Counted from the stretch's first letter, positions 252 to 20,000 are shown. The stretch: DNA of 20,000 nt from an uncultured virus (IMG/VR IMGVR_UViG_3300011006_000550) (IMGVR_UViG_3300011006_000550), one strand, 5' to 3'. Made by a program: numbers and translations. Notes: generated by a model from the sequence alone, not told the origin.

Positions 252-324
252 TGGCGGGAAGCGGACTCGAACCGCTGACCTCAAGGCTATGATCCTCGCA
301 AGCTACCAACTGCTCCATCCCGCG
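252..324 (-). tRNA. tRNA-Met (CAT), initiator-like but atypical; no encoded CCA
   Basis: Reverse complement CGCGGGATGGAGCAGTTGGTAGCTTGCGAGGATCATAGCCTTGAGGTCAGCGGTTCGAGTCCGCTTCCCGCCA folds as a cloverleaf; anticodon CAT; T-arm AGCGG-TTCGAGT-CCGCT; 1:72 unpaired (C.C). Confidence 0.9.
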
Positions 325-452: not shown

Positions 453-460
453 TATTTTTG
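453..460 (+). promoter_or_regulatory. Bacteroidetes -7 element upstream of terL
   Basis: TATTTTTG followed by CA just before ATG 470; a second TATTTTTG at 443-450; no clear -33 box. Confidence 0.5.
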
Positions 461-469
461 CACAAAAAT

Positions 470-2173
470 ATGAATATAATGGAGAAGTTTTCAGGATTAA
501 AAATGCCCGATGGTGAGCCAATTCTGACTCAGGAATATATCAACTCCCTCCAACAGCAGGCTATAGCAAAAAAACTAAGGAATGCTTACGTGCCGCAAGC
601 TGGAGGTCAGGAGAATATGCTCGCTATTGACGTGGATATTCTGATATGCGGAGGAAGCCGTGGAGGATCGAAGTCTTTCTCCCTTCTCATGGAAGCCCTC
701 AAGGACATTCTCAACCCCGATTTCCATGCTGCCGTGTTCCGAAACAACAAGAAGGCGATGGAGAAACTGATACGAGACTCCCGCAAGCTCTATTCTCAGT
801 TCGGCACCTACAACAAGTCGCAGTCGGATATGACCTGGAACTTCACGGCTGGAGGTACGCTTGGCTTCTACTATCATGATGACTCCGACGATGATTTCAA
901 GGAGCGTTTTCAGGGACAGGAATATGCCTATATCGCCATCGACGAGATCACGCATATCTCTTATAAGAAGTTCAAATACCTCACCACCTGTAACCGTAAT
1001 GCCTACGGCATTAGAAACAGATTCTGGGGAACGTGTAACCCTGATCCGCGTTCTTGGGTTAGACAGTTCGTTGACTGGTGGATCGACAAAGACGGATATA
1101 TCGATCCCGCAAAAGACGGTAAGGTACGCTATTGCTTCATGAAGGGTGAGCGCATCAATCAGATTGTCTGGGGTGACAGCAGACATGAGGTTTACCTCAA
1201 ATGTAAAGACGATATTGATGAACTCTGGAAGCCTGAGTTTGATGCCCTCGGACTCGATAAGGAGGAGACGATGGTAATGTCTGTGGCCTTTGTCCGTGCA
1301 GACCTCGCACAGAACCCAATGCTGCTTCTTTCTGACCCGTCCTATCTGTCACGACTGGCTCAGCAGGACAAAGGCCAAGTTCTACGCGACCTCAAGGCAA
1401 ACTGGAATGCCTCGGAGGCTGGCGACGATATGATCTCATACGACGAGCTGGAATCGATATTCTCAAATCCGGCTCAGTATGGTGACGGCAAGCGACGGTG
1501 TACGGCCGATATTGCACTTGAAGGTGGTGATAACCTCGTCATGTACCTGTGGATCGGATGGCATGTGGCAGACTTCTGCTGCATCAACGTAAATTCCAAG
1601 ACCGCTGTGTCGGTCATCAGAAGGAAACTAAGGGAGTGGGGAGTGGCAGAAGAGGATTTCTGCTATGACTATCAGGGTATCGGACAGCTTGTGAAGGGAT
1701 TCTTCCCAGAGGCCATACCGTTTAACAACCAGTCCGCTCCCATCGCAGAAGACGATGATGACTACGAGGGCGTGAAGTATCTCTATAAGGACCTCAAATC
1801 GCAATGCGCGTACATTATTTATCGTAAACTCAAGGAAATGGGACTCTCATTCGAGGAGAATCTTCTCGATACGAAAGTCTCAGGAAACGGCTACGAGGAT
1901 ATTCTCTTTAGGGACGTTCTGCAGAAGGAACGTATGTCGCTCAGACGCGATCCAGATACGAAAGACAAGGGCTTCTGTCTTATGCCCAAGAAGAAGTCGA
2001 AACTGATTGTAGGACACTCACCTGACTGGTGGGAATCTCTGTATTTCCGTGCTTACTTTGACATTGCCCAGCCCGTTCAGCTCAACATTGAGAATGACTG
2101 GATGCTTGGTGCCGAAATGGATATGGATATGGTCGAAGACGATGATTTTGATTATGAAATGGATTTTAATTAG
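470..2173 (+). CDS. terL: Terminase large subunit
   Basis: Walker A-like GGSRGGSKS, Walker B YIAIDE, TCNP coupling motif, RNase H-like nuclease start TADIALEGGD, late SPD motif; followed by portal. ATG 470 preferred because TTG 458 lies in the promoter box. Confidence 0.92.
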   Translation: MNIMEKFSGLKMPDGEPILTQEYINSLQQQAIAKKLRNAYVPQAGGQENMLAIDVDILICGGSRGGSKSFSLLMEALKDILNPDFHAAVFRNNKKAMEKLIRDSRKLYSQFGTYNKSQSDMTWNFTAGGTLGFYYHDDSDDDFKERFQGQEYAYIAIDEITHISYKKFKYLTTCNRNAYGIRNRFWGTCNPDPRSWVRQFVDWWIDKDGYIDPAKDGKVRYCFMKGERINQIVWGDSRHEVYLKCKDDIDELWKPEFDALGLDKEETMVMSVAFVRADLAQNPMLLLSDPSYLSRLAQQDKGQVLRDLKANWNASEAGDDMISYDELESIFSNPAQYGDGKRRCTADIALEGGDNLVMYLWIGWHVADFCCINVNSKTAVSVIRRKLREWGVAEEDFCYDYQGIGQLVKGFFPEAIPFNNQSAPIAEDDDDYEGVKYLYKDLKSQCAYIIYRKLKEMGLSFEENLLDTKVSGNGYEDILFRDVLQKERMSLRRDPDTKDKGFCLMPKKKSKLIVGHSPDWWESLYFRAYFDIAQPVQLNIENDWMLGAEMDMDMVEDDDFDYEMDFN

Positions 2174-2181
2174 TATAGTGT

Positions 2182-3852
2182 ATGACAAAAAGCTTAGATT
2201 TTAAAGAAATCCTTGTGCGCAATCCTGTATACAAGGTGTTGCCAAGCGACTCAAATCTGAAATTTGAGACGTATCAAGGTGTTGACATGTCGGAGCCTGA
2301 CGATCCGCTGAAGCTGCAAGTTTATACGCAGTCGCAGATGCTTCGTGAGTATTATCCTTCAGGTCACAATATCAATAATCCGATTCTGTACCCTGACGTG
2401 TGGAAGAAGGCACCAGTGCCGGGAAAGCCTAACAAGGCACGCTATTTCCGTCAGCCTATCACGCGCGTCTCTCTTGCTTTCCAGCGTATCATCAAGATCA
2501 AGGCCAACGTCCACATCTGCGGAAACGATGCTCAATTTGAGCTTGCATCACCCGAGAGAGACGAGAAGAAGACGCTGAAAGATACATTGTCACTGCTTGA
2601 GTTCAAAGAGGGCTGGCTCACGATGGGAATGGAAGAGCGTCTGTATGATGCTGTCGATTCCATCCATACCGTATCTGATGCGGCCATCGTAGGTTACTTC
2701 GATGATGAAGGGGAACCACAGGCGAGGGTATTCTCTTTCATCAACGGCGATAAGCTCTATCCGCATTACGATTCCATCACTGGCAAGATGAAGCTCTTCG
2801 CCCGCAAGTACCGTGATCTTGATGAAGACGGAAAGAGCACGACCGAGTGGGTAGAGGTGTGGGATAACAAGTATCTCTACCGTTACAAGCGCGACATCAA
2901 CAGCAACGAACTCATTGAGAAATTCAAGGGCTTCTTCGGACTTGGTGGATTCAAGATGGTTGGTGAGCCAGTAGAACACGGATTCCCGTTTATTCCCGTA
3001 GCCTATCATGTGAACACCGAAGGTCCTGTGTGGGCTTTCTCTCAGGACACCATCGAGAAATACGAGGAGGCAATGTCTTACTTCTTCGAGAACAACAAGG
3101 CATACGCTTTCCCGATCTTCTATGCCAAGGGAAAGGGCGTGAAGATTCAGGGCAATATGAACGGTGCCGTCAAGGCCGTTGCCATCACGGACCCGAAGGG
3201 AGAGGCTGGCTTCTTGAATCAGGCCGATGTCTCTGCATCCTACAACACCTTGCTCACGAAGCTCTACGATCTGATTTACGAGCAGTCCTTTGCCGTCAAG
3301 CCGCCCGAATTGAAGTCCGGCGATCTGCCAGGCGTAGCCGTCAAGCTGCTTTTCAGCCCTGCAATAGAACTGGCCATCGGTGGCGTTGCCCACTATCAGG
3401 ACTTCCTTGAGCAGTGTGTCCGCATTGTCAAATACGGATGGGGATATAAGATCAACAAGGCCGCTACGCTTATGACATTGCCTATCAAGTCATGGTTTGA
3501 GCCGTATATCCATCAGAATGATTCAGAGCTGATGCAGAACCTCCGCATCGGTGTGCAGGATGGGTTTATCTCCAAGCAGACGGCATCTGAGCGTGCATCG
3601 AAGTACACCAAGAATGACGAGACAGACCGCATCCTCAAGGAATACAAGCAGATGCAGGAACTTGACCTTCTCTTTGAGACCAAGAAGAAGAAGGCCGAGG
3701 TCGAAGCAGAGATTGAAAAAGAGAAAGCCATTGCCAAGGTCAATCCGAAGCAGGGTAATGTCCGCACAGGAAACGGTCGCAACCGCACCACCGACGAAAA
3801 CGGTAACCACCCTGGCGAAAACAACTGGGATGATTGGGACAAAAATCACTAA
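2182..3852 (+). CDS. Portal protein (SPP1 gp6-like)
   Basis: 556 aa directly after terL; HGFPFIPVAY and SGDLPGVAVKLLF segments resemble SPP1-type portals; charged C-terminal tail. Confidence 0.8.
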   Translation: MTKSLDFKEILVRNPVYKVLPSDSNLKFETYQGVDMSEPDDPLKLQVYTQSQMLREYYPSGHNINNPILYPDVWKKAPVPGKPNKARYFRQPITRVSLAFQRIIKIKANVHICGNDAQFELASPERDEKKTLKDTLSLLEFKEGWLTMGMEERLYDAVDSIHTVSDAAIVGYFDDEGEPQARVFSFINGDKLYPHYDSITGKMKLFARKYRDLDEDGKSTTEWVEVWDNKYLYRYKRDINSNELIEKFKGFFGLGGFKMVGEPVEHGFPFIPVAYHVNTEGPVWAFSQDTIEKYEEAMSYFFENNKAYAFPIFYAKGKGVKIQGNMNGAVKAVAITDPKGEAGFLNQADVSASYNTLLTKLYDLIYEQSFAVKPPELKSGDLPGVAVKLLFSPAIELAIGGVAHYQDFLEQCVRIVKYGWGYKINKAATLMTLPIKSWFEPYIHQNDSELMQNLRIGVQDGFISKQTASERASKYTKNDETDRILKEYKQMQELDLLFETKKKKAEVEAEIEKEKAIAKVNPKQGNVRTGNGRNRTTDENGNHPGENNWDDWDKNH

Positions 3853-5663: not shown

Positions 5664-7187
5664 TTAATCGTCTTCTTTTATGAATGTTCCTTTTTCTTCC
5701 TTGTATTCAATCTCCATGTCGGCAGTACGGATGACGAAGGGCTGACTGAGCCTGTCCTCGTTACAGCCGTAGATGATATAGCGGTAGCCCTCCTTGAAGT
5801 GCTTCTTGCCGAAACCGAACCTTCCCATCGTTTGGCCGAAGAGTTGTCTTGACGGCATATCGACATCGTTATCCTTGCAGAACTGCTCGAGACTCTTATA
5901 CAGATCCTGTGTGGCGATGGTAACGGATTCCTCATGCAAGGCACCTGGCTCTTTGCGCATACGGTATGAGTTGATCCATGCAAGCACGGGATTCATCTGT
6001 AACTGCGCAAGAAGGATCTGTCTTCTGTTACCCTCAGACGAAGGGAACACAAATTTTCTACGCTTCAACTCCCTGCAGCCTCTCAGGATCCAGTTGAAGA
6101 TACCCGGGTATTCTTCAACAAGCTCCCGTGACAAAGCAGGATTCTGTCTGTCCTTGGGTATCGTGATCTCAAAGGTGATGAATTGCAGCCTGCGGATGAA
6201 GCCAAGACTCTGATCGTCGGAGTAGGGCAGCTCGTTCAAGTTGAAGATAAGGAACGGGATATTATAATTCTCCTTCACGTCCTCACCCAGTTTCCTGTCC
6301 GTGACACTCTCACCGCTCACGATTCTCTTGAATACACCAGTGCGCTTTCTGCCAAACGTCCGTTGGTCCGAGTCCGAAGACCAATTAAAGATAGCCTCAC
6401 GCAGCAGCCTACGCGCACGCATACCCTCGTCACCCGTTGCCGTCAAATCATCATAGTCAAGGCCAGAGATCCTTTCCTTGCCGAAGATGCCGATGGCAGT
6501 ATCATAGATCGTGCTCTTGCCGTTAGCACCGGCACCAAGAAGGATAAGGCACAGCTCTATCTTCGAGGCGTTCTTACCCTCATAGGAGTTATAGACAGTA
6601 CCACGCTCCATCAGTCCCAGACCAAGGAACATCTGCAGGATCAGGCGTGAGTTCTTATCCGGCAGAACCTCATGCAGAAAATTGTTCCACTTGTTACACT
6701 TCGCATTCTCCTTATACTCGTAGGGATGATAATATGTAACATGGAACTCTGGGCTGAAAGGAAACAGCATGTACTTTCTCAGGTCCAGCACACCGTTCTT
6801 GAAGGCAATGAGATCATGCCTCGGCAACAGAGGGTTATAGTAGCGGATGATGTCGATGAAGTACTTCTTGCATATTCCCTTATCACCGATCATAGGCACC
6901 ACCCTCAGATGCTCAAGCAACAGGTCATAGGCTGTGATAATCAGTTCCTCACGGATGGCAACATATATCTTATCGTCATAGAGGTAGAAGCTGCCATCAT
7001 AGAACTTGATGTCACAATCCTTTGCAAGCATCCTGATCTTCTCGATGAAGTCAAGTTTCAGATTCTGGAACTGCTCGGAGGTCCTGTAACCCCAGCGGCC
7101 CTTGAACTTCTCGAAATTGAAGTCACCATTGGAGCAGAGCCTCAGCAGCCCGCCGTAGATCTTATCAATAACTGTACTGTCTCTCAT
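5664..7187 (-). CDS. D5/P4-family (SF3) helicase, no evident primase domain
   Basis: D5_N-like LIAFKNGVLDL...FSPEFHVTY; Walker A GAGANGKST; NELP...GFIRRL motif; winged-helix-like C-terminus. Confidence 0.85.
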   Translation of the reverse strand: MRDSTVIDKIYGGLLRLCSNGDFNFEKFKGRWGYRTSEQFQNLKLDFIEKIRMLAKDCDIKFYDGSFYLYDDKIYVAIREELIITAYDLLLEHLRVVPMIGDKGICKKYFIDIIRYYNPLLPRHDLIAFKNGVLDLRKYMLFPFSPEFHVTYYHPYEYKENAKCNKWNNFLHEVLPDKNSRLILQMFLGLGLMERGTVYNSYEGKNASKIELCLILLGAGANGKSTIYDTAIGIFGKERISGLDYDDLTATGDEGMRARRLLREAIFNWSSDSDQRTFGRKRTGVFKRIVSGESVTDRKLGEDVKENYNIPFLIFNLNELPYSDDQSLGFIRRLQFITFEITIPKDRQNPALSRELVEEYPGIFNWILRGCRELKRRKFVFPSSEGNRRQILLAQLQMNPVLAWINSYRMRKEPGALHEESVTIATQDLYKSLEQFCKDNDVDMPSRQLFGQTMGRFGFGKKHFKEGYRYIIYGCNEDRLSQPFVIRTADMEIEYKEEKGTFIKEDD

Positions 7188-10464: not shown

Positions 10465-10646
10465 CTTTGGTTAGTGAACGAACTTGAACGATATTTATAG
10501 ACCTTTTCAGAACTTCTGTCACCAGTAAACCCCTGATAACCAGCAAATTCCGCCACACAAAACAACGAAATTCACGATTTCTGGATTTCCTGGCCCCAAG
10601 ACGTTACAATCTATAGTACCTATCTATATCTAACCAAATTGCGATG

Positions 10647-10654
10647 CAAAGATA
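10647..10654 (-). promoter_or_regulatory. Bacteroidetes -7 element for the leftward operon
   Basis: Minus strand TATCTTTG followed by CA, ~180 nt upstream of ATG 10464. Confidence 0.65.
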
Positions 10655-11430
10655 CAACTTTTCATTAATATCATTCACTATTTATACAAAAAGTGCATAT
10701 TTATTAGGATTTTTTAATGAACGATATTTTTTCTACACTCTGAGATCGTTAAGAATGATGAACGATTTCGTGACATCTGACGAATTGTTAAAACGGCCCA
10801 AAAATTCAGGAAAAAAATAATTTTGAGGCGACCGCCGCCACAAATCTCGTGCCAAAAAAGGGGGTGTAGGGGGTATTTTAAGGGTATTAAAGAGTATTTA
10901 ACACTCTCTGCAAAAATTCATTAAAATTTGCTGAAATAGCCCTATTTTACACATATTTAACACTATTCCCGATATTATACCTAATAATGTAGGCTGGTTA
11001 TTTAATATTTTTTAACTTTATTTCTTTGGTTTAACAAATTTTTAGGATTCGCGCCACCATGTCATGGTAATTTATTTTTACGCCACATTGTCATAAGATT
11101 TTTCTTTACATTATGATTGATTTATATCAAGTATGATTATACATTTATGCAATAACCTTCTGGAAACGCCTTTAAACAGGGGATTTCATAAAATTGAATA
11201 TGCAATAATTTTGCGTTCCGAAATAAAGATTCTTTACACTTGAAATGTCAATATTTAATCATTATTTAACCTATAATAACATTGTCGGATTGTGCGCCCA
11301 CACATCACGATTTTGTAAACATAATTTAACTAACATGGTCGTAACATTAAGTAATATTTAGTTGTGTGCCTACACAGGCCCTTTGGGAATGCCTTTGTAC
11401 AGGGCATTATTTTGTAAATATATTTCACTA

Positions 11431-11461
11431 TTGCAAGTATGGAATTTATTTCGTAACTTTG
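11431..11461 (+). promoter_or_regulatory. Bacteroidetes promoter for the rightward module
   Basis: TTG (11431-11433), 20-nt spacer, TAACTTTG (11454-11461), ~80 nt upstream of ATG 11544. Confidence 0.65.
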
Positions 11462-11543
11462 TACTATAAGAAATGAATATTTAACCACTGCCAAACGGGG
11501 AAACGCAGCGCACCACAAAGGAGCGGAACAGCCCGAAAGATTT

Positions 11544-12158
11544 ATGTGTACATTAAACGAGACCTTAAAGAAGGTAGGAGAAAACGCCAAAGGTAGTGTC
11601 AAGGTAGAGAAAATGAAGGCCGAAATTGCCAAGGTTGCAGCCAGGTATTACGCACCTTATCGCCACGCTCTTATTAGTGAGTTGTTCAAGGGTGCCAGTG
11701 AGGACGAACTTAAGGCAGAACTTGCAGCCTTTGACGCTGACACCAAGAACGGCACACAGTTAGTTATCATCGCAGCCGACACCAAGGTGAACGCAAACGG
11801 ACAACTCACAGATGATGAGGGGAACATTCTCGAAAATGCAGTATCTTTCGCCACCGTGATTTCTACCAACAAAGACGGTGAAATCACAAAGGAGCGTCAA
11901 GTGTTCCGTGTTCCCTACATCGCAGACACCGACCAGCGTAACAACCGTATTGTTGCCTACTGGGTGCGTTTCCGTGAGACGCGCGAGGAGTCATTTGCTG
12001 CAGCCCGTGCCGCCAAGGTTGACTCTATTAAGAAGGAGTTGCAGCCGTTGTCCGTTCAGGTTGAAACATTCACCAAGTACAACGTGCCCGTACCCGCTGA
12101 ACTTTCAGAGAAGGTGGATGCTCTCAAGGCTGAACTTTCAAAACTGGGTGCGGAATAA
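11544..12158 (+). CDS. Hypothetical protein (204 aa), first gene of the rightward module
   Basis: Lies between promoter and terminator; biased codon use (CGT, AAG); helical C-terminus. Confidence 0.85.
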   Translation: MCTLNETLKKVGENAKGSVKVEKMKAEIAKVAARYYAPYRHALISELFKGASEDELKAELAAFDADTKNGTQLVIIAADTKVNANGQLTDDEGNILENAVSFATVISTNKDGEITKERQVFRVPYIADTDQRNNRIVAYWVRFRETREESFAAARAAKVDSIKKELQPLSVQVETFTKYNVPVPAELSEKVDALKAELSKLGAE

Positions 12159-12185
12159 ACGCAGACGGAAACAGACGGAAAAGAC

Positions 12186-12216
12186 GAAGGTAGGGAAATT
12201 CCTACCTTCTCTTTTT
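12186..12216 (+). terminator. Intrinsic terminator
   Basis: GAAGGTAGG-gaaatt-CCTACCTTC followed by TCTTTTT, 27 nt after the stop. Confidence 0.75.
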
Positions 12217-12243
12217 GTGCCCTGTCTTTCCAGGCCCTAAGAA

Positions 12244-12303
12244 ATCCCCTGACGAGTCTTTGAGAATTAAGACGAAACCACAGATCTGTTCTGTGGTCGG
12301 GAT
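12244..12303 (+). ncRNA. Type I hammerhead ribozyme
   Basis: Stem I ATCCC (12244-48)/GGGAT (12299-303); core CTGACGA (12249-55); stem II GTCTT/AAGAC; GAAA (12274-77); stem III CCACAGA/TCTGTGG; GTC triplet 12296-98 with predicted cut after C12298. Confidence 0.93.
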
Positions 12304-12343
12304 AATCCTTTTGTGTTTTTCCTCAGTGTATTGTCCGGCTGAG

Positions 12344-12404
12344 CGAACGGACTGAACGATTTGAACGAACGAACGATGAATAAGAGTGAACGATTGATGA
12401 ACGA
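12344..12404 (+). repeat. Cluster of (T)GAACGA direct repeats
   Basis: TGAACGA at 12353, 12362, 12387 and 12398, plus overlapping GAACGA at 12367 and 12371. Confidence 0.75.
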
Positions 12405-12408
12405 GCGA

Positions 12409-12729
12409 ATGATGTTTGTCACAAGACGTGGCCAGTCTGCTGAGATTCAGAGAAAGAACTGGCTGAGAAGACTTAGAACAAAGAGGTCTGCCGATCCCGA
12501 AGGATGGGTGACTGCAAAATTTGTTGGTCAGATGGGATTTACAAACTTTAATTTTTGTGCACATTCATGGAGAGCTATCAAGATGGAAGCCAAAATTATC
12601 GCTTCACTTCAACATGAGCCTATCGAAGTTTTGGATGCAAATACACTGATTCCATTATTCATATGTCTTCCTTGCTTTGATTCGCGTGAAGATATTATTT
12701 CATACACAGAACGTGCATTTCAGAATTAA
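12409..12729 (+). CDS. Hypothetical protein (~106 aa)
   Basis: Open frame between the hammerhead and the structured region; the longer N-terminus in the ORF track is a translation of GAACGA repeats, so ATG 12409 is preferred. Confidence 0.5.
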   Translation: MMFVTRRGQSAEIQRKNWLRRLRTKRSADPEGWVTAKFVGQMGFTNFNFCAHSWRAIKMEAKIIASLQHEPIEVLDANTLIPLFICLPCFDSREDIISYTERAFQN

Positions 12730-13401
12730 GTACGATAACACAGAGCACAGGCGCAAGCCTGTAATGTGGCTCACCTCATGGTGAACGGTTGCAAGCCCGT
12801 GCAAACAACATTCAAACGGTGAAAATGTAACGTGGAGGGGCGCAAGCCATAGCCACTACCGCACAGAGAAACCGAGCGACAACGAGCGTTTTGAACGACT
12901 TCCAGCTAATTACTTGATTTTTGTCGCCAGTGGGAGTATTGCAGCCGACCGGCGGGGTGAAACTAAAGTCCCGCAAGCCCCGCAAGGGACGAGTGACTGT
13001 TACAAATCATATTCTTAGATTATTTCTCCCGTGAGGGAGTACGATAATAACGGATAGCTACTGTCCGAGAGCGACTTGAGCAATCAAGTACGATGAACGA
13101 GTGAGTTTATCGTGGTGGTTCCCGCCAAGAGTACGAAAGCACATTTAATCACTTTAGGATGCTACGCAGTATGCAGGGCTTTGATGGTCAGGCAGCTGGC
13201 AATGAAAGACATTAAGGGTGCAAGACCCATAGCATAAAGAACGGTTTGACAGTACGATTCATAAAACTGCCACACGGAACGGTTGCAAGTAAAGAGGCCC
13301 GAAAGGGGACTTGCAGGAGAGAACGAGTACGATAACAAAAACGAAGTTCCGGAGACTACGGGAGAGAGCAGGGAAACCTGCTCTCTCTTACTTTCAACCA
13401 A
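12730..13401 (+). ncRNA. Large structured non-coding RNA candidate, family unassigned
   Basis: No credible ORF; many GNRA-capped hairpins (ACAGGC-GCAA-GCCTGT 12747-62, CCC-GCAA-GGG, CTCCC-GTGA-GGGAG, CCC-GAAA-GGG, GAGAGAGCAGG-GAAA-CCTGCTCTCTC); long-range helices 12911-19/13082-90, 12923-27/13071-75, 13275-80/13346-51, 13284-90/13309-15. Confidence 0.75.
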
Positions 13402-13419
13402 TTAAAAACAAGTACGATT

Positions 13420-13629
13420 ATGATTAAGAGAATTGCTTTGCATCTTATCGCCCTGGTGGTACTGATGCCGTGTATGTTGGTGTTTAATATCAGCGAGAAG
13501 TTATGGGTAAATATCCTTGGACTGATTTATTGTTGCTATTTGTACATCATCCTGAACGAGAGCGATGCAGCCAAGCGTTTTGTTCGTCGTTACTACCATG
13601 AGATCCTCCGTTTGCAGAACATGTTGTAG
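13420..13629 (+). CDS. Small membrane protein (69 aa), array gene 1
   Basis: Two hydrophobic segments; the TAG stop begins element 1. Confidence 0.75.
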   Translation: MIKRIALHLIALVVLMPCMLVFNISEKLWVNILGLIYCCYLYIILNESDAAKRFVRRYYHEILRLQNML

Positions 13630-13686
13630 TTTCTCTGATTTTTGTGGCAGAAGGCTGCAAAAATCGCTCACTTTCAACCACTAAAA

Positions 13687-13794
13687 ATGAACAATATGTA
13701 TTACGTAGAGATTGACAACGGAGAGAGATTCTATTTTGGCGACGATTTCAACGCTGCCGCAGTGTTCAACCATGCCGTGAATGACAGGCATTAG
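13687..13794 (+). CDS. 35-aa peptide MNNMYYVEIDNGERFYFGDDFNAAAVFNHAVNDRH
   Basis: Not in the ORF track; fills the space between elements 1 and 2, and its TAG is that of element 2. Confidence 0.65.
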   Translation: MNNMYYVEIDNGERFYFGDDFNAAAVFNHAVNDRH

Positions 13795-13844
13795 TCTTCT
13801 TTCGGCCATTGTATGGCCGAGCTATTAACCAAAGTACGATTATT

Positions 13845-14048
13845 ATGACAGACAGAAAATTTGAGCATCTTACTGATGTGGTTGATTTCTTCAGTTGGAA
13901 GCAGTTCGACGAGAAAGAGAGGTTTTCTTTGAGTGAGGACCAGCGAAGACAGCTTACCGAGGTACGCGACGAACTCGAAGACTATTCGAGGTCTGGCGAT
14001 GCGGTTGCAGATCTTTGGCTTGAATGTGCGAACGAGTTGCTGAATTAG
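13845..14048 (+). CDS. Hypothetical protein (67 aa)
   Basis: ATG 13845 after element 2; TAG in element 3. Confidence 0.75.
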   Translation: MTDRKFEHLTDVVDFFSWKQFDEKERFSLSEDQRRQLTEVRDELEDYSRSGDAVADLWLECANELLN

Positions 14049-14094
14049 TCTCTTGGAGCCTGTTGGCTCCGCTTATAACCAAAACTTACATGAT

Positions 14095-14355
14095 ATGAAA
14101 AGAAATGCTTTACTTAGGACGAGTGCTATCTTCAAGTGTATTGTCACATTCAAGAACGGCACTCACGCAGTTATCAGAATGACCATTGACATGGTAGCGA
14201 AAATCACGTATGAGTTCAGGGAGTTTCAGCGTAACATCTTCTCAGAGACATGGCTTCTCTGGGTGAGCGCAACGGAGATTCTTAACATCACAGAGATTCG
14301 TTCTTGCAAGTTCATCAACGAAAACACTGGTGTTGAGTTCCTTACGATTGATTAG
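14095..14355 (+). CDS. Hypothetical protein (86 aa)
   Basis: ATG 14095 after element 3; TAG in element 4. Confidence 0.75.
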   Translation: MKRNALLRTSAIFKCIVTFKNGTHAVIRMTIDMVAKITYEFREFQRNIFSETWLLWVSATEILNITEIRSCKFINENTGVEFLTID

Positions 14356-14404
14356 TCTTTTGGGAATCTTGCATGATTCCCGCTATTCACCAATATTCAA
14401 GAGT

Positions 14405-14830
14405 ATGTTACAATCAGAGTTTTACGACAGGACGCACGTTACTCTCTCAGCAGAGCAGTACGGCGAGGTAGAGAACATCTACAACAGGTGTCAGATGGAT
14501 AAGGACGAGTTCTGCAGGCTGTGGCTTGAGAATCGTGACAACAAAATCATCAAAGAACTGATGGACCACATCATGAACACCGAAAAGAAGTTGTATTTTG
14601 CAAAGGAAAAAGCTGCCAAATGCGACAAAGCGATTAATGACGAGCGCGAAAAATGTAAGGAGCACATTGAGAGCCTTGGGCGCAAGGTCGTTGCGAACAT
14701 CGACGATGAAACAAAGTTATACGATGCCATTGAAGAGGAGTTCACGCTTGATTTCATCATCAAGGTCAAGTTGCAGGAAAACATGGATCTCGATCTGCAC
14801 GAACGGCAGCACCTCATTGAGAAACTTTAG
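14405..14830 (+). CDS. Hypothetical protein (141 aa, MLQSEFYDRT...MDKDEFC)
   Basis: ATG 14405 after element 4; TAG in element 5; coiled-coil middle. Confidence 0.8.
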   Translation: MLQSEFYDRTHVTLSAEQYGEVENIYNRCQMDKDEFCRLWLENRDNKIIKELMDHIMNTEKKLYFAKEKAAKCDKAINDEREKCKEHIESLGRKVVANIDDETKLYDAIEEEFTLDFIIKVKLQENMDLDLHERQHLIEKL

Positions 14831-14874
14831 TCTTCGCAGCCGAACGGCTGCACTACAACCAAACTATCAGAATT

Positions 14875-15171
14875 ATGAAATATATGGCAACGTTTGATGC
14901 TTGGAAGTTGGGAACTTTCGACATCATTTTGGAAAAGTACGATGCAGATTGCTGTTCTCACCCAGGCCCGTGTGACTTGGATTGTGAGCGAACGATTAAT
15001 CTTGATTATGTCAAAGAACAACTCAAGGAAATCACCTCTGAGCAGATCCGTCAGGTCTTGATAGACTATGGCCTTGAAGATGCCGACGAGAAAGACCGCA
15101 AGCAACTTGAGACGTATATTGTCTGGCTTGCAGCGGGTGACATCATAGACGGGAACTGTACTGAATGTTAG
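14875..15171 (+). CDS. Hypothetical acidic protein (98 aa)
   Basis: Between elements 5 and 6; CCSHPGPCD motif. Confidence 0.8.
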   Translation: MKYMATFDAWKLGTFDIILEKYDADCCSHPGPCDLDCERTINLDYVKEQLKEITSEQIRQVLIDYGLEDADEKDRKQLETYIVWLAAGDIIDGNCTEC

Positions 15172-15233
15172 TCTCTATCGGGCAGTGCCCGACTATAAAC
15201 CAATTTAACTTATTATTAGAGGAGATATAGTTT

Positions 15234-15686
15234 ATGAAAGAAACATTTTGCCCTTACTGTGGTTCTGAGAATATTACTATTCAGGCTACAGACCTTTTAG
15301 AGTGTAATGATTGTAAAGAGTTGTTTACTCATGAAGATGTAGAACATAATATTCTTCGTGATAAAATCAGCAGCATCTGCTCTGCTTTCGAGGCAACTGA
15401 GGATAATCCCATTAACTGTATCAGGGAGGATGCTATGGAACTCCACATAGAAGGCATTACAGAAGCAGCACAGGGACTTTCTGAATCAGAGAAGCCACAG
15501 GTAAGCACTGTTTTCCATGATCCGGAAGGAATCGTGTGGATTACCTTTTTAGAATATCCTTTTGGGGGGTCGCCTTGTAACAGTGAACCAATGGAACTTG
15601 ATAGTATTTCTATCAATGATTCTCTGAAAGAAATTCTGTCGTGGCTTGAAGAAAACCTGAGTGTCAACGCTCTTGGAAGATGTTAG
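15234..15686 (+). CDS. Hypothetical protein with N-terminal zinc ribbon (150 aa)
   Basis: CPYCGS...CNDC; between elements 6 and 7. Confidence 0.8.
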   Translation: MKETFCPYCGSENITIQATDLLECNDCKELFTHEDVEHNILRDKISSICSAFEATEDNPINCIREDAMELHIEGITEAAQGLSESEKPQVSTVFHDPEGIVWITFLEYPFGGSPCNSEPMELDSISINDSLKEILSWLEENLSVNALGRC

Positions 15687-15731
15687 TCTCTATCGGGCAT
15701 TCGCCCGAACTATTCACCAATATTTTTGATT

Positions 15732-15899
15732 ATGGAATTTGTTCACACAGAAATCAAGGAGCATCCTCTACGAGATTGTTTAATGTTGTGGATTCCAGAG
15801 CTTCCTTTTGTGCCTCCTTTGTTTGGAACAAAGAAGGAATTAGAAGAAGCGAGAGTATTTGCAGAACAAAAAGCAGAGGATTATCTTAAAAGTCACTAA
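15732..15899 (+). CDS. Hypothetical protein (55 aa, MEFVHTEIKEHPLRDCLMLWIPELP...)
   Basis: Not in the ORF track; ATG after element 7; ends in TAA with no element following. Confidence 0.65.
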   Translation: MEFVHTEIKEHPLRDCLMLWIPELPFVPPLFGTKKELEEARVFAEQKAEDYLKSH

Positions 15900-15910
15900 A
15901 TCATTGAGAT

Positions 15911-16069
15911 ATGGCACAGAAGAAAGTAGAATGGTATTGCTTTACCGACAACAAGGATTGGGGCCGTTTTTTCATTGGCAAGGCCAGTACGAAAAGGGAG
16001 GCCGTTGACATGGGCAAGGTAGCGAACAAAGGTAAGTTCGTGGTTGAGCCGCGTCGTAAATGGAAGTAG
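15911..16069 (+). CDS. Small basic protein (52 aa), paralog of 16125-16289
   Basis: MAQKKVEWYCFTDNKDWGRFFIGKASTKREAVDMGKVANKGKFVVEPRRKWK; TAG in element 8; not in the ORF track. Confidence 0.8.
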   Translation: MAQKKVEWYCFTDNKDWGRFFIGKASTKREAVDMGKVANKGKFVVEPRRKWK

Positions 16070-16124
16070 TCTTTAAATTGCGCAATCGCCGATTGCGTAA
16101 TTACTCTAACCAATTCCATAATAT

Positions 16125-16289
16125 ATGAGCAGAAATTATCACTACGAGTATTTTGCCTATACTGACAATTTGAATTATGGCCGTGTGTATCTTGGCCAGG
16201 CACGTCAGCGTTGGTATGCACAGATGATTGCAAAAAAGGCAAACAAAGGATGCTATGTCATAGAAAAGCATCGTGTGTACGAAAATTAG
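16125..16289 (+). CDS. Small basic protein (54 aa), paralog of 15911-16069
   Basis: MSRNYHYEYFAYTDNLNYGRVYLGQARQRWYAQMIAKKANKGCYVIEKHRVYEN; TAG in element 9; not in the ORF track. Confidence 0.8.
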   Translation: MSRNYHYEYFAYTDNLNYGRVYLGQARQRWYAQMIAKKANKGCYVIEKHRVYEN

Positions 16290-16334
16290 TCTCTTGGCTT
16301 CCACTGAGAGGCCGCTATGTTTCACCAACAAATT

Positions 16335-17234
16335 ATGAAGAATATGGAAAGAAGAGAAAAAGTTAATGCCTTACGAGAGTTAGCTGTACGCTCTGGCCGC
16401 AACATTAGCATGGATCCCGACAGATGGGGAGAGCACATGCTTGACAGCCTTGAAAGCAGTCTTGACAAATTCCTTTCGCAGATTCCTGACGAGTTGAAGG
16501 ATGAAATGGAAGATGCCTACATTGAGAAATACAAGGAATGGCTTTACGCTCAGAGCCGGTGCTTCTCTCAGATGATTACAGGTGCAGGAGGCTGGACTCC
16601 TGCCGTGCATCGCAGACATGAGAAGACGAACGCTGCCGAACATGCTGCCTATGAACGGCTTCAGACTTGGGCAGAGAGAGTCATCAAACGATGCAACCGT
16701 CAGGAACGTCTCACGGGATGGGCCGAAGTTGAGCGTCTTCAGGAGAAGATAGACAACCTTACGAGATCTCAGGAAATGATGAAGGCCGCGAATAAGATTG
16801 TTCGCGACAAGAAACTGGCCGAGGTCGAGAAGGTTGACGAACTTGTTGCACTCGGATTCCGTGAAGAAGTCGCCATTGAAATCCTGCACCCTAAGTATGA
16901 TTGGATGCAGCCTGGATTTGCTTCTTACAGTTTGACCAATAACCTTGCTAAAATCAAGGATGCAGAGGCGAAGATGAAACGTCACGCTGCAATGGCAGAG
17001 AGAGCAACAGAAGGTGATGAAGTCCACGAATATGAGTGGGGAAAGCTCGTTGTTGCGTTTGGTGACGAACGCTACCGCTTCATTTTTGACGGCAAGCCTT
17101 CTCAGGAAATCATCAATCTGATGAAGTCGAACGCTTTCAAGTGGAGTCCCGCCAATTCTGCTTGGCAGCGTCAGATCACTACCAATGCAAAGTACGCCGT
17201 GAAGCGTATGATTGAGGAGCTTAACAACATGTAG
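16335..17234 (+). CDS. Phage/plasmid early-type protein with DUF3560/polyvalent-protein-like C-terminal domain
   Basis: SRCFSQMITG motif and C-terminal RFIFDGKPSQEIINLMKSNAFKWSPANSAWQRQIT, a pattern I recognise from DUF3560-type proteins. Confidence 0.6.
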   Translation: MKNMERREKVNALRELAVRSGRNISMDPDRWGEHMLDSLESSLDKFLSQIPDELKDEMEDAYIEKYKEWLYAQSRCFSQMITGAGGWTPAVHRRHEKTNAAEHAAYERLQTWAERVIKRCNRQERLTGWAEVERLQEKIDNLTRSQEMMKAANKIVRDKKLAEVEKVDELVALGFREEVAIEILHPKYDWMQPGFASYSLTNNLAKIKDAEAKMKRHAAMAERATEGDEVHEYEWGKLVVAFGDERYRFIFDGKPSQEIINLMKSNAFKWSPANSAWQRQITTNAKYAVKRMIEELNNM

Positions 17235-17285
17235 TCTTTTGTCCCGCCTTGCATGGTGGGACGCTATTAACCAATTCTACAGATT

Positions 17286-17582
17286 ATGATGAAGATATTA
17301 TCAAAGGACAATTTCAGCTTCTTTGAAATCAAGGAAGACTGCAGGGAGAATTTCAATGAGGTACGTTGGACGGACCTCTCTGACTTCCACAAGAACGCTC
17401 TGATTTGGATCGGCGATGCCATACGTGGCGATAAGTCGCAGCATTTCTGGTGTAACGGCTGCTACTGTTGGTATGTTGACGAGAAGCAGAGCCATGAGCA
17501 GGGTGTATGGATGACACAGAACGGCATAGCCATGTTCGAGGACATCACCGAGAGAAAGCTCTATCGCATCGAGTTCGTTTAG
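17286..17582 (+). CDS. Hypothetical protein (98 aa)
   Basis: Between elements 10 and 11. Confidence 0.8.
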   Translation: MMKILSKDNFSFFEIKEDCRENFNEVRWTDLSDFHKNALIWIGDAIRGDKSQHFWCNGCYCWYVDEKQSHEQGVWMTQNGIAMFEDITERKLYRIEFV

Positions 17583-17644
17583 TCTCTGAGGGAGGGGACA
17601 GATTGTACCCCTCCTTGCACATTTAACCCCTAATTTTATAGAAT

Positions 17645-17977
17645 ATGGAACAGACAGCAGTTGTTACCGATGCTCAGCGCATCAATCAGATTACCGGCCG
17701 TCCTATGGCCGATTGTGAGAAACAGGCTCAGCAGATCGCAGAGTGCATCCGTGAAATGTCCTCTCGCGTCGTTGAGTTCTACTACATGAAGAAGGATGGA
17801 ACGAAGCGTCAGGCTTTCGGCACGTTGCAGCCGGAGGTGATTGTGCCTCTTATCAGCAATGCGCCCGAGCGCAAGCCGAATCCCGACCTCGTGACGTACT
17901 ACGACACCGAGGCACAGGGTTTCCGTTCATTCAAGAAGGTGAATTTCGTGGAGTACGTTAAAGTCCCTGAAGCATGA
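17645..17977 (+). CDS. WYL_2/DUF2693 Sm-like SH3 beta-barrel protein
   Basis: VVEFYYMKKDGTKRQAFGTL...VTYYDTEAQGFRSFK signature. Confidence 0.8.
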   Translation: MEQTAVVTDAQRINQITGRPMADCEKQAQQIAECIREMSSRVVEFYYMKKDGTKRQAFGTLQPEVIVPLISNAPERKPNPDLVTYYDTEAQGFRSFKKVNFVEYVKVPEA

Positions 17978-18117
17978 GCGGTTTTGTAAAGAATGCCTGG
18001 GCCTTCTTCCTCATGATGCTCTTGTTTGGTGTGTACACCATTCCGATTATCGTTGCCATCGGGATTGTTGCTCTGCTCATTGCGAGATACAAGCCCGAAT
18101 GGTTCAACAGAGTGTAG
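17974..18117 (+). CDS. 47-aa membrane peptide, paralog of 18169-18312
   Basis: MSGFVKNAWAFFLMMLLFGVYTIPIIVAIGIVALLIARYKPEWFNRV; ATGA overlap with the WYL_2 gene; TAG in element 12; not in the ORF track. Confidence 0.8.
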   Translation: MSGFVKNAWAFFLMMLLFGVYTIPIIVAIGIVALLIARYKPEWFNRV

Positions 18118-18168
18118 TCTTAAGCCGTGCAAAGGACACGGCACCATGATTCACCAATCTTTTACAAA

Positions 18169-18312
18169 ATGACAGAAATAGCAAAATTCGCCTGGACTTT
18201 GGTCCTTGTAATCTTCTTTGTAGGTATGAAGGCTTTCATCATTCTCTTGGTGATTTTAGCCCTCATTGCAGTACTCTACATCATCAATCCTGATTGGTTT
18301 AAGCCGAAGTAA
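18169..18312 (+). CDS. 47-aa membrane peptide, paralog of 17974-18117
   Basis: MTEIAKFAWTLVLVIFFVGMKAFIILLVILALIAVLYIINPDWFKPK; stop overlaps element 13. Confidence 0.8.
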   Translation: MTEIAKFAWTLVLVIFFVGMKAFIILLVILALIAVLYIINPDWFKPK

Positions 18313-18365
18313 GTCTCAAGCCGTGCAAAGGACACGGCACCACCAACCAATTAAATTTTACGAAT

Positions 18366-19361
18366 ATGAAACATGAAGATTTTAGAATCCGCTACAATGA
18401 AATCATGTTCGACGAGCGCGACGTGATTAAGTCATTCTTAGAGCGTCAGGCCGACATTCGCTATGGTAAGCAGATGTGGGAATGGTGCCTTAACAATGTT
18501 CAGGTGATTGCCGTCAATGGTTCCCTCTATTATTGTTACGAGATTTTCCTCGAGGATGGCGATGTGAAGTTTAGGATGAAACCCGCAATCGATTGGCAGG
18601 GAGAGACAGAAGTTTGGGAATGTTCAAATTTCGCTCTTGGTGAGCTTTCAAAGATTATCGATGCTCTGCCTGAGATTGAGAAGATCATCCGTACCAATGC
18701 AGAATCTGACTTGAAGGAGTTCTGCAAGGATTGTTCTGTCAATCTCGAAGGTGAAGAGTTCCGATGGGAGGTGGGCTGTGCTGGGTACGAAGTCCAGGAG
18801 ATTGCCATTGACAACAAAGGCGACTTGAATTGCTTAGTCATGCACACAGATTCCCTTGGCAAAAAGACATTCCTCCAAGTCGATCACTTTGACTTGGATA
18901 TTACTCAGAAACTCCGCGACCATGTGCATGTTGTCATTCTGCATCGAAGCAAAGAGTATAAGAAGTTGATGGAGTTACTTGAGAAATTCGATAATCTCCG
19001 TTGCGACTTTGAACACCCTGATTACTTCATCACACCTGTCGGTACAGACCTTACTTGCATGGTTCTTTCTGTTTACAGGAATGCAGATGAGCTGTATGTA
19101 TTGACAGACCCAGGCGAGCGCATTGGCGATACATTCCTCTTTAAAGAGAAGGATTTGAAAGATTGTAATCTTGCCATCTGTATTGAGGCCGTCAAAGACA
19201 TGTTGCCTGTGAAGATGATGACAGTCACTGTCTCTGAGGTACGCTCTCGTATTATCGAAGTCGAGGCAGATGATTTCAACGAAGCGAAGAAGAAGGCCAA
19301 AGAGGTGCTTGAAAAAGAGCCTCTTAATGACGGCGATTCCAACGGAATCCAATTCCTTTAG
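18366..19361 (+). CDS. Hypothetical protein (331 aa) with C-terminal DpnD/PcfM-like domain
   Basis: C-terminal MTVTVSEVRSRIIEVEADDFNEAKKKAKE matches the DpnD/PcfM pattern by eye; TAG in element 14. Confidence 0.7.
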   Translation: MKHEDFRIRYNEIMFDERDVIKSFLERQADIRYGKQMWEWCLNNVQVIAVNGSLYYCYEIFLEDGDVKFRMKPAIDWQGETEVWECSNFALGELSKIIDALPEIEKIIRTNAESDLKEFCKDCSVNLEGEEFRWEVGCAGYEVQEIAIDNKGDLNCLVMHTDSLGKKTFLQVDHFDLDITQKLRDHVHVVILHRSKEYKKLMELLEKFDNLRCDFEHPDYFITPVGTDLTCMVLSVYRNADELYVLTDPGERIGDTFLFKEKDLKDCNLAICIEAVKDMLPVKMMTVTVSEVRSRIIEVEADDFNEAKKKAKEVLEKEPLNDGDSNGIQFL

Positions 19362-19415
19362 TCTCTCGGGAGCCGTGCACGGCTCCTACTATTATTCACC
19401 AAAATTCAAAGTAAT

Positions 19416-20000
19416 ATGATAAAGATAGACACTTACGAACTTGCAAAGGAAGTTCAGAAGATTGAGATCAGAAATCTCGTTGAAGCAGTCAAATCCTATG
19501 GTGGCAGAGTCACGTTCTGTGATATGGATGCCGTTGATGGAGAGCAGACTGCTGACGTTAATGAGAGGGCTTGCGTCATGGTAAACGTTGACAACGTAGG
19601 CCCTATCGATGTCTATATCAATTCCGTAGAGGTCGATGATGATTCTCACCTCCATATCAGAGGCGAGTACAAAGACGATTTCGGAGAGTACGACATCGAC
19701 GCGACAGATATTGCCGTCGGCCACATCGGATTTATCACAGATCTGATTCCTTTCAAGAAGGGAATGAAGAAACTCTGGCTTCGCCTTGGTGTTGAGGTTG
19801 ACGCTACAGACGAAGAGGTTGAGGACATCATCGAGAACAAAGGCAGCTGGGGCAGATTCAGCATCCAGCAGATTATCGAGGATGGCCGTTTCAGACTGTC
19901 GGGACTTACCGTAGTGCCGGAGGAAACCATCGAAGATTTCAACAAGGAAGAAGGCTCTCAGTTTGAGGTCAAAGATGTAGAGTACGATTACAAGTCATAA
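19416..20000 (+). CDS. Hypothetical acidic protein (194 aa)
   Basis: ATG after element 14; TAA at 19998-20000. Confidence 0.8.
   Translation: MIKIDTYELAKEVQKIEIRNLVEAVKSYGGRVTFCDMDAVDGEQTADVNERACVMVNVDNVGPIDVYINSVEVDDDSHLHIRGEYKDDFGEYDIDATDIAVGHIGFITDLIPFKKGMKKLWLRLGVEVDATDEEVEDIIENKGSWGRFSIQQIIEDGRFRLSGLTVVPEETIEDFNKEEGSQFEVKDVEYDYKS

Follow-up and report, generated by a model that had tools for sequence, protein, structure and literature searches.

What marks the gene boundaries in a long array of small phage genes, and what does a leader with two ribozymes contribute to it? Both questions are raised by a 20,000-nucleotide (nt) stretch of DNA from an uncultured virus (IMG/VR IMGVR_UViG_3300011006_000550), referred to here as the window, in which a promoter, a first gene, a terminator, two ribozymes and a large structured RNA precede an array of 17 small genes, nearly all of whose junctions carry one and the same short element. 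In this element a stop codon is joined to the core (A)GUCUYY and followed, after 0-9 nt, by a hairpin of variable sequence and by a tail ending in AACCAA. Our analysis describes a family of structured RNA and a boundary element, both new, the latter with its core welded to the stop codon. We read the region as the opening part of a long early operon, made up of accessory genes, in a temperate tailed phage that infects rumen Bacteroidales; the operon would be processed as RNA and divided by RNA-level gene-boundary modules that double as crossover points, and we give this reading as a whole a probability of about one half.

The strict pattern TAGTCT-N18-48-ACCAA matches 11 times in the window, always on the + strand and between 13792 and 19402, where 0.25 matches are expected and none of 200 shuffles reached 11. 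Together with three variant copies, at 13627 (TAGTTT), 17580 (tail AACCCC) and 18310 (TAAGTCT), these matches place the element at 14 of the 16 junctions between 17 ATG-initiated open reading frames (ORFs), as had been claimed in the original prediction, an account of this DNA drawn up from the sequence alone. The two junctions free of it are 15897-15911 and the 17974/17977 overlap. The promoter, the 204-amino-acid (aa) gene, the terminator and the hammerhead ribozyme listed in that prediction were likewise all found on the + strand with the 17 ORFs.

Relatives of the window were collected through its primase (27 loci, 29-88% identity), through an anchor in a conserved stretch of the RNA (33 metagenome loci) and by a 16-mer scan of viral contigs (30 loci, six with neighbouring motifs, of which five duplicated earlier loci and one was new). 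More than 30 related contigs show the promoter, gene 1, the terminator, a first ribozyme (ribozyme A), optional ORF(s), a twister-P5 ribozyme, the structured RNA and the element-punctuated array. The order is identical in all relatives examined, with one or two ORFs between the ribozymes in some, and the earlier proposal that these parts belong together is thus borne out in their co-occurrence and synteny. Two scans of viral contigs with loose single-element patterns gave only chance single hits among the matches listed, and no locus of the second scan had at least three elements.

The element is a structure at the RNA level, folded on the sense strand. Over 76 distinct copies, at least five pairs form in 72, with a mean of 9.1 pairs and a mean z of -3.9 versus shuffles; the sense fold is more stable than the antisense fold in 65 copies and less stable in nine, and G-U pairs make up 126 of the 694 element pairs (18%), while the stem sequences vary freely from copy to copy. 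The TAG of the element is a working stop codon, since its frame is open for the 60 upstream bases in 67 of the 76 copies, versus 28 and 30 in the other two frames. As TAA and TGA stops are also directly followed by the core (TAAGTCT, TGAGTCT), the conserved core is (A)GUCUY set against the stop. The RCTA that the original prediction had included after the hairpin is no general feature of the element: counted by eye, it is found in 8 of the 14 window copies and in 23 of 72 distinct family copies, and a general UAGU/RCUA lower stem, present in just those 23 of 72, was rejected with it. As side observations, the loop CUUGCAUG recurs in element hairpins with differing stems (at 14353, at 17232 and in several relatives), and four phages have the hairpin GCAGCC-GAAC-GGCUGC in common, at junctions that differ.

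The two halves of the element differ in their reach. The AACCAA tail lies mostly 5-16 nt from the next ATG, at 11-12 nt in 26 of the 76 copies. More distant relatives retain a hairpin and an A/U-rich ..UUAAC.. tail and lack the core, and in the cultured Bacteroides phage BI-TP1 (L462, 15500-17460, minus strand) three junctions show a hairpin and a UUCACCC-UUUAAA..UUUG tail a few bases before the ATG; the region read in BI-TP1 has no ribozyme-like motifs or AGUACGA clusters. The tail being kept in the distant relatives and in BI-TP1, the tail half is the older and more general signal, and the core a clade-specific addition. Bacteroidales hosts largely lack initiation led by a Shine-Dalgarno sequence, and the tail half is most likely a leader or translation-start signal.

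Several other identities were tried for the element and rejected. A host-type promoter is not supported, given that TAnnTTTG occurs in 1 of the 14 elements and that sigma-70-type matches are not placed at elements; a canonical terminator would call for a T-rich tail, which 2 of the 14 have. The element does not mimic the host boxA, GTTCTTTGA, which is found in 59 of 71 Bacteroidales rrn leaders and nowhere on the window's + strand. Nor is the element an attC site, its conserved ends TAGTCTY and AACCAA not being complementary and CTA following the hairpin in 27 of 72 copies. No Rfam match points to a known small ribozyme, and a single hairpin with two short conserved flanks seems too little for one. 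There are no tRNA-like genes in the junctions.

Upstream of the array, transcription appears to have a single point of departure. The only TAnnTTTG box, which we take to be the Bacteroidota -7 box, on the + strand within 11207-15720 is that at 11454, and none occurs between 11454 and 15721; TAccTTTG is a conserved word in Bacteroidales rrn leaders. Gene 1, which comes next, keeps its place in relatives (168-217 aa there) with merely 16-23% sequence identity; a peptide-pattern search with it found no relatives, and a protein atlas gave nothing usable. A similar hairpin and T-run follow the first gene in relatives, and in the window the hammerhead starts just 12 nt past the end of the T-run. Given this spacing and the lack of a further -7 box between 11454 and 15721, the RNA and the array would be made by read-through from the gene-1 promoter.

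Two ribozyme slots frame the leader. Slot A is occupied by the hammerhead in seven loci, with an invariant core and compensatory substitutions in stems I-III. The hammerhead had been called complete in the original prediction: its full core and three stems are there, whereas its best Rfam score (RF03152, 29.3 bits, E 0.12) is below the gathering threshold of 56.3, with no match to a second hammerhead family at E up to 5. The cut is predicted after C12298 of GUC. In 13 loci slot A holds a twister-P1-like sequence, assigned by motif; the one tested against Rfam scored 53.4 bits (E 1e-10), under the gathering threshold of 67.2. As two unrelated ribozyme classes share one slot, the cut itself would be what selection keeps. 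The second slot holds the twister-P5 ribozyme (ribozyme B), which in the window scores 43.5 bits against a gathering threshold of 37.6 and covers model positions 1-58 of 58. It reaches gathering in 2 of 8 and 8 of 20 loci, ten related loci in all, and, among the 28 loci that extend 600 nt or more upstream, 25 have a looser twister-P5 motif 250-570 nt before the anchor. Cleavage is predicted between U12762 and A12763 on the basis of the Rfam alignment and of twister biochemistry. The distant relatives L136-L145 gave no Rfam match at gathering.

Between the two ribozymes lies the short ORF of the original prediction, present at its place and, beyond what had been claimed, a conserved gene of 117 aa with 49% and 38% identity in two relatives. 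It gave no family or fold match and nothing usable from the protein atlas, L135 and L199, whose leaders are shorter, lack it, and contig comparison shows the ORF between the ribozymes swapped for 241 other bases in a related strain. Six GAACGA repeats (12354-12404, + strand) stand after the hammerhead, partly inside the start of this ORF, and are kept in L126, L128, L131 and L135.

The non-coding stretch that follows, 12730-13419, had been described as a region of about 670 nt; it does end with a hairpin and CAACCAA, and it opens with the twister-P5 ribozyme, which had gone unseen. Its 3' domain is a genuine structured RNA. The alignment of 21 distinct 3'-domain sequences (window 12999-13401) has a consensus fold of 62 pairs in 12 helices, with double-sided changes in 33 of the 62 pairs versus 22.8 in shuffles, 95.6% of paired cells versus 80.8%, and a covariation score of 0.442 versus 0.175, which falls to 0.06-0.11 when partners are slid by 1-3 columns; on every measure the observed values were reached by none of 500 shuffles. 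The RNA-level structure suggested in the original prediction thus holds for both components, through sense-strand folding of the element and covariation of the large RNA. The latter matches no Rfam family at gathering, nor at E up to 5 over 11000-20000. Its terminal hairpin (helix 12), with double changes in 8 of 13 pairs, precedes the first array gene and, with its UUACUUUCAACCAA tail, matches the hairpin-plus-tail half of the junction element. An invariant 15-nt loop, AUUUAAUCACUUUAG, is found at 13145-13159, closed by a helix in which all five pairs covary, and may be where a partner RNA or protein makes contact.

In contigs of a close strain from one RNA library, depth is 12.9 over gene 1, 14.5 over the RNA and 2.5-4.9 over the array, while the DNA contigs of relatives are flat in depth (13.3 and 142.5). 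This pattern fits a stable, abundant RNA species, although contigs cannot show ends: one RNA-library contig covers 12788-13366, and both limits coincide with boundaries of strain variation and so are no evidence of RNA ends.

The elements are also the places where the gene content of the array changes. When contigs of related strains are compared with the window, an exact deletion removes one 47-aa gene, bordered on either side by 25 bases that are identical in the two element hairpins flanking it, and another exact deletion removes the neighbouring paralogous 47-aa gene. These tandem mini-genes (17974-18117 and 18169-18312, + strand) look membrane-like, and the element behind each of them has the same 25-nt hairpin. 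Five genes, on 1,483-1,547 bases that run from the element at 14828 to that at 16287, are skipped or replaced, and 271-278 bases are inserted after the element at 17580. In BLAST comparisons with all related loci, 34 of 53 homology-block ends fall inside junctions; 18 of 28 end clusters lie in junctions, which make up 15.7% of 13401-20000 (p = 8e-9). Gene order is A,B,C,D in the window versus A,B,D,C in L128, and crossovers are seen at several places within elements. Cassette gain, cassette loss and the ends of homology blocks therefore fall at elements, as the original prediction had anticipated for gene-content breakpoints. The exact deletion between identical hairpins is what homologous recombination would give, and RecT is among the proteins encoded by the phage.

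At the far end of the array stands a 324-aa Xer-like tyrosine recombinase, the last array gene and in array orientation in all five long relatives, convergent with a 410-aa integrase; the window itself has no integron-type tyrosine recombinase. In the complete relative G002 the element-bearing part, from the RNA to this recombinase, spans about 11 kilobases (kb), a layout that recalls, by analogy, the leftward early operon of lambdoid phages.

Considered together, these observations allow us to propose a model for the region. Host RNA polymerase would start at the single host-type promoter near 11454, transcribe gene 1 and partly read through its terminator. Ribozyme A (the hammerhead here, twister-P1 in many relatives) would then cut off the gene-1 message, and the twister-P5 would cut next, giving an RNA of about 630 nt a 5'-hydroxyl end and letting it accumulate as a stable species, with the array of cassette genes following on the same transcript. 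In each module, the gene-end half would consist of the stop codon fused to (A)GUCUYY and a stable hairpin of free sequence, and the gene-start half of ..AACCAA, mostly 5-16 A/U-rich bases and the AUG. The hairpin most likely insulates or stabilises the upstream cistron, as a block to 3' exonucleases or a mark for processing, and the tail most likely serves the next cistron as leader or translation-start signal. Being repeated, the module would also become a site at which recombination adds, removes and reorders cassettes.

Several points weigh against this model. Any gene mosaic would be expected to break between genes, because selection acts against broken genes, and the enrichment of breakpoints at junctions does not, for this reason, single out the element. 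A plain stabiliser hairpin leaves unexplained why (A)GUCUY touches any stop (UAGUCU, UAAGUCU, UGAGUCU), and equally why the large RNA contains an exact complement of the core. The translation role of the tail is based only on its spacing and on the like motif in a cultured relative. The scores of the hammerhead and of the slot-A twister are under Rfam gathering, and cleavage here is predicted. The RNA data are assembled contigs of a single run, from a related strain and at low depth, in which DNA carry-over is possible. Finally, a host search over 401 sampled genomes of one Bacteroidales family gave three marginal matches of at most 40 nt, none of them true.

The complement of the core raises the first alternative, namely that the ribozyme-released RNA of about 630 nt is a guide which docks, in trans or over a long range in cis, on each gene boundary, with GAGACUA as the seed on the UAGUCUY core at stop codons. 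One RNA would then govern the whole array, directing a cut, masking the stop codon or coupling termination to the next start. The GAGACTA in the non-coding region, already pointed out in the original prediction, proves to be an invariant linker of the large RNA: it lies between two covarying helices, is the exact complement of the element core UAGUCUC and is the sole + strand copy in the window. It is found in 32 of the 32 loci with enough sequence and also in the more distant L141, while the flanking bases vary, so that the invariant stretch is 7 nt in both partners. Pairing with G allows C or U at element position 7, and 65 of 69 copies have one of these two there; L145, which is without GAGACUA, has elements that keep TAGTCT only partly; and the structured RNA is the best-covered part of the RNA library. 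On the other hand, seven bases are few, and about one 400-nt domain in 40 would contain a given 7-mer by chance. Extension beyond 7 nt is weak, position 8 fitting in 17 of 19, 21 of 39 and 4 of 9 copies in three groups, and the invariance of both partners means that linker and core show no covariation. RNAalifold pairs the GAGA of the linker with the 5' end of the domain itself (helix 1), a helix whose own invariance leaves it unproven either way. No known mechanism fits, and the RNA data, being contigs, hold no RNA ends or chimeras. We consider a guide of this kind unlikely, with some chance left to it. If true, a single phage RNA would direct cutting, or the coupling of termination to re-initiation, throughout an array of anti-host genes that is itself being shuffled, as a bacterial-virus counterpart of guide-RNA-directed RNA processing.

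A different use of the same RNA is processive antitermination, in which it would be tethered to the polymerase like the put RNA of phage HK022 and make transcription resistant to termination, so that it would pass later terminators and the many hairpins over more than 10 kb; the ribozyme cuts would free the RNA from upstream ribosomes and Rho. In favour of this, a strong terminator stands between the only promoter box and the array, the small ORF has an arginine-rich N-terminus, and the element-bearing array, which has the RNA close to its beginning, extends for about 11 kb to a recombinase beside the lysogeny module, in a manner that recalls the lambda PL operon. The RNA is, however, downstream of the terminator that most needs to be passed, and the element hairpins, without T-runs (2 of 14 being terminator-like), leave little to antiterminate. 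The host boxA is a sequence other than the element tail, and antitermination, one option in the original prediction, is not supported in a form that works through a boxA-like site. Depth in the RNA library drops about 3- to 6-fold after the RNA, and some relatives have the RNA and the elements but not the arginine-rich ORF. Antitermination is accordingly rather improbable in our view.

Less probable again is that each element acts as a promoter, a terminator or both, and makes every cassette its own transcription unit. This is the arrangement of the PeSL cassettes of T4-type phages, reportedly treated by Comeau and colleagues in 2014. The elements share with PeSL their position, their repeat nature and their role in indels (PMC2839356), and the three junction tails of BI-TP1 hold TTTG a few bases before the ATG. 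The scarcity of -7 boxes and T-rich tails in the 14 elements and the placing of sigma-70-type matches elsewhere nevertheless speak against it, and the sense-strand bias and G-U pairs point to RNA rather than DNA signals.

Very improbable, lastly, is the integron-like platform of the original prediction, in which the Xer-like recombinase would act site-specifically on the elements as folded single strands: its array orientation and element-borne stop codon in five of five long relatives and the existence of exact single-cassette deletions would suit it, but the enzyme (that of G002) scores 31.6 bits with TIGR02249 against an integron-integrase cut-off of 265 and sits at the distal end of the array with no adjoining attI-like site, inverted core sites of the attC type are lacking in the element, the 25 identical bases on both sides of the exact deletion are what homologous recombination needs, RecT is encoded by the phage, and crossovers are scattered within the elements.

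Our preferred reading, a processed operon with boundary modules, has to be set beside several known systems. In the early region of phage T7, RNase III sites lie between cistrons, and the hairpin left at the 3' end of the upstream message acts as a stabiliser. The present array is alike in having hairpins between the cistrons of what would be one early transcript; its stems, by contrast, average 9.1 pairs, too short by the requirements of RNase III, and its conserved single-stranded flanks are unmatched there. GOLLD and ROOL are large ornate phage-associated RNAs with Rfam families, and RAGATH finds RNAs near twister and hammerhead ribozymes. With these the locus shares a covarying RNA of several hundred nt, from gut or rumen phages, beside self-cleaving ribozymes; unlike GOLLD and ROOL, the RNA described here has no Rfam match, always heads an operon and shares its 3' end with the junction element. 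Integron attC arrays are similar in that promoterless cassettes are delimited by direct repeats, conserved at their ends and folded in a variable centre, and differ in what is lacking here, namely an integron integrase, an attI beside the recombinase and R''/R' inverted cores, as well as in the coding-strand folding of our element.

The claim of the original prediction that no described system has this combination needs to be toned down, because both ribozyme-flanked prophage genes and PeSL cassettes have been published. Clustered hammerhead (and twister) ribozymes flank genes in prophage operons, and long phage transcripts are proposed to be cut there into shorter messages (Perreault et al., 2011, PMC3088659). 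Self-cleaving ribozymes between genes, in a temperate operon rich in accessory and anti-restriction genes, are common to both cases; here, however, there are only two fixed leader slots, one filled by either class, which frame a large RNA, and the array junctions are not ribozymes. PeSL has been described as a repeated intergenic stem-loop between small non-essential genes of T4-type phages, with indels at the modules (Arbiol et al., 2010, PMC2839356). Here too, relatives differ by indels and replacements at the modules, whereas host-type promoter and T-run terminator are lacking, the stop codon is in the module, the structure is sense-strand RNA, and the phage is temperate and of Bacteroidales instead of T4-like. 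In its logic the locus agrees with the T7 processing sites, the large ornate RNAs, the ribozyme-flanked prophage genes and the PeSL cassettes, yet it belongs to none of them. Positions of the features are collected in Table 1.

Table 1. Positions of the leader, junction elements, array genes and neighbouring phage genes (window coordinates unless another contig is named).
Feature	Position	Strand	Remarks
-7 promoter box, Bacteroidota-type, TAACTTTG	11454-11461	+	83 nt upstream of gene 1
Gene 1, 204 aa	11544-12158	+	no family
Intrinsic terminator, canonical	12186-12215	+	10-base-pair stem and T-run; directly after gene 1
Hammerhead ribozyme, type I (ribozyme A)	12232-12303	+	core CUGACGAG, CGAAAC, GUC; three stems
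117-aa gene	12376-12729	+	arginine-rich N-terminus; starts within GAACGA repeats
Twister-P5 ribozyme, RF02684 (ribozyme B)	12739-12800	+	5' edge of structured RNA
Structured non-coding RNA, ~630 nt	12763-13403	+	5' part variable, 3' domain conserved
Linker GAGACUA	13352-13358	+	between two covarying helices (9 and 12), just before terminal hairpin
Terminal hairpin and tail	13360-13403	+	hairpin-plus-tail half of junction element
Array of 17 small genes	13420-20000	+	
Junction element, overall build	13627-19402	+	stop codon/(A)GUCUYY, 0-9 nt, variable hairpin, ..AACCAA
Elements 1-7	13627-13681, 13792-13832, 14046-14082, 14353-14393, 14828-14862, 15169-15203, 15684-15720	+	
Elements 8-14	16067-16113, 16287-16328, 17232-17274, 17580-17630, 18115-18157, 18310-18350, 19359-19402	+	
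phrog_15742 and phrog_14450	14405-15171	+	array genes
phrog_6744 and phrog_19458	16335-17234	+	array genes
WYL_2	17645-17977	+	array gene
Xer-like recombinase	G002:C1:57975-58949		counterparts in G003-G006; stop codon part of element
Large terminase	458-2173		
Portal	2182-3852		
D5-type primase	5664-7187	-	
tRNA, anticodon CAU	252-324	-	beside terminase gene

The window is a fragment of a tailed phage in which all genes from 11544 onward are on the + strand; besides the genes listed, it encodes an HNH endonuclease and an SPFH protein, and the array genes other than those named in Table 1 gave no family match. The tRNA has counterparts at the matching place in L126, L131 and L135, where ARAGORN calls them tRNA-Met. 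G002 is a complete genome of 75.6 kb with terminal repeats and encodes two tyrosine recombinases, a repressor, an anti-repressor, RecT, SSB, NinB and ArdC- and RadC-like genes, with no RNA polymerase among its PHROG hits. The closest phages in GenBank are temperate phages of Bacteroides, Phocaeicola and Parabacteroides, at about 30% primase identity, and no GenBank phage has a DNA match to the region or to the structured RNA. Parts of the region are contained in sequencing runs whose labels give cattle and goat gut metagenomes as the source. The minus-strand replication genes are separated from gene 1 by a divergent control region (10465-11543, 32% G+C) with several short repeats, 68-74% identical in relatives, and this AT-rich region is probably an operator or origin region.

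The leader RNA is additionally packed with the octamer AGUACGA(U/C), which the original prediction had overlooked, as seen in window 12730-13840 and in L126, L128, L131, L135 and L144. In the window, GTACGAT occurs nine times versus 1.55 expected, and GTACGA 14 times on the + strand and not once on the - strand; across eight leaders the AGUACGA motif is found 0 to 15 times per leader. AGUACGA is a linear motif and not a loop motif: AGUACGAU was tried as a T-loop-like loop module and rejected, since its 268 contexts include 29 in loops and 57 on 3' hairpin flanks, where random G positions fall in 15% and 14% of cases. In three relatives the motif stands in place of the GCAA loop of twister P1, and some start codons have it immediately upstream. 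Bacteroidales rrn leaders (L223-L302) share AAGTAGTACAAG (GTAGTACAA in 55 of 71), about 30 nt downstream of GTTCTTTGA, and AAGTAGTACAAG is like the phage motif in 6 of 8 positions.

The role of self-cleaving ribozymes in phages is a long-standing question, which the clean architecture of this locus can address: more than 25 phage contigs share the two ribozyme slots, and the second predicted cut would set the 5' end of a new covarying RNA. The junction element, for its part, may show how Bacteroidales phages mark the ends and starts of their genes on RNA, and it also marks the sites of cassette exchange in a region that in relatives carries ArdC-, RadC- and WYL-type genes.

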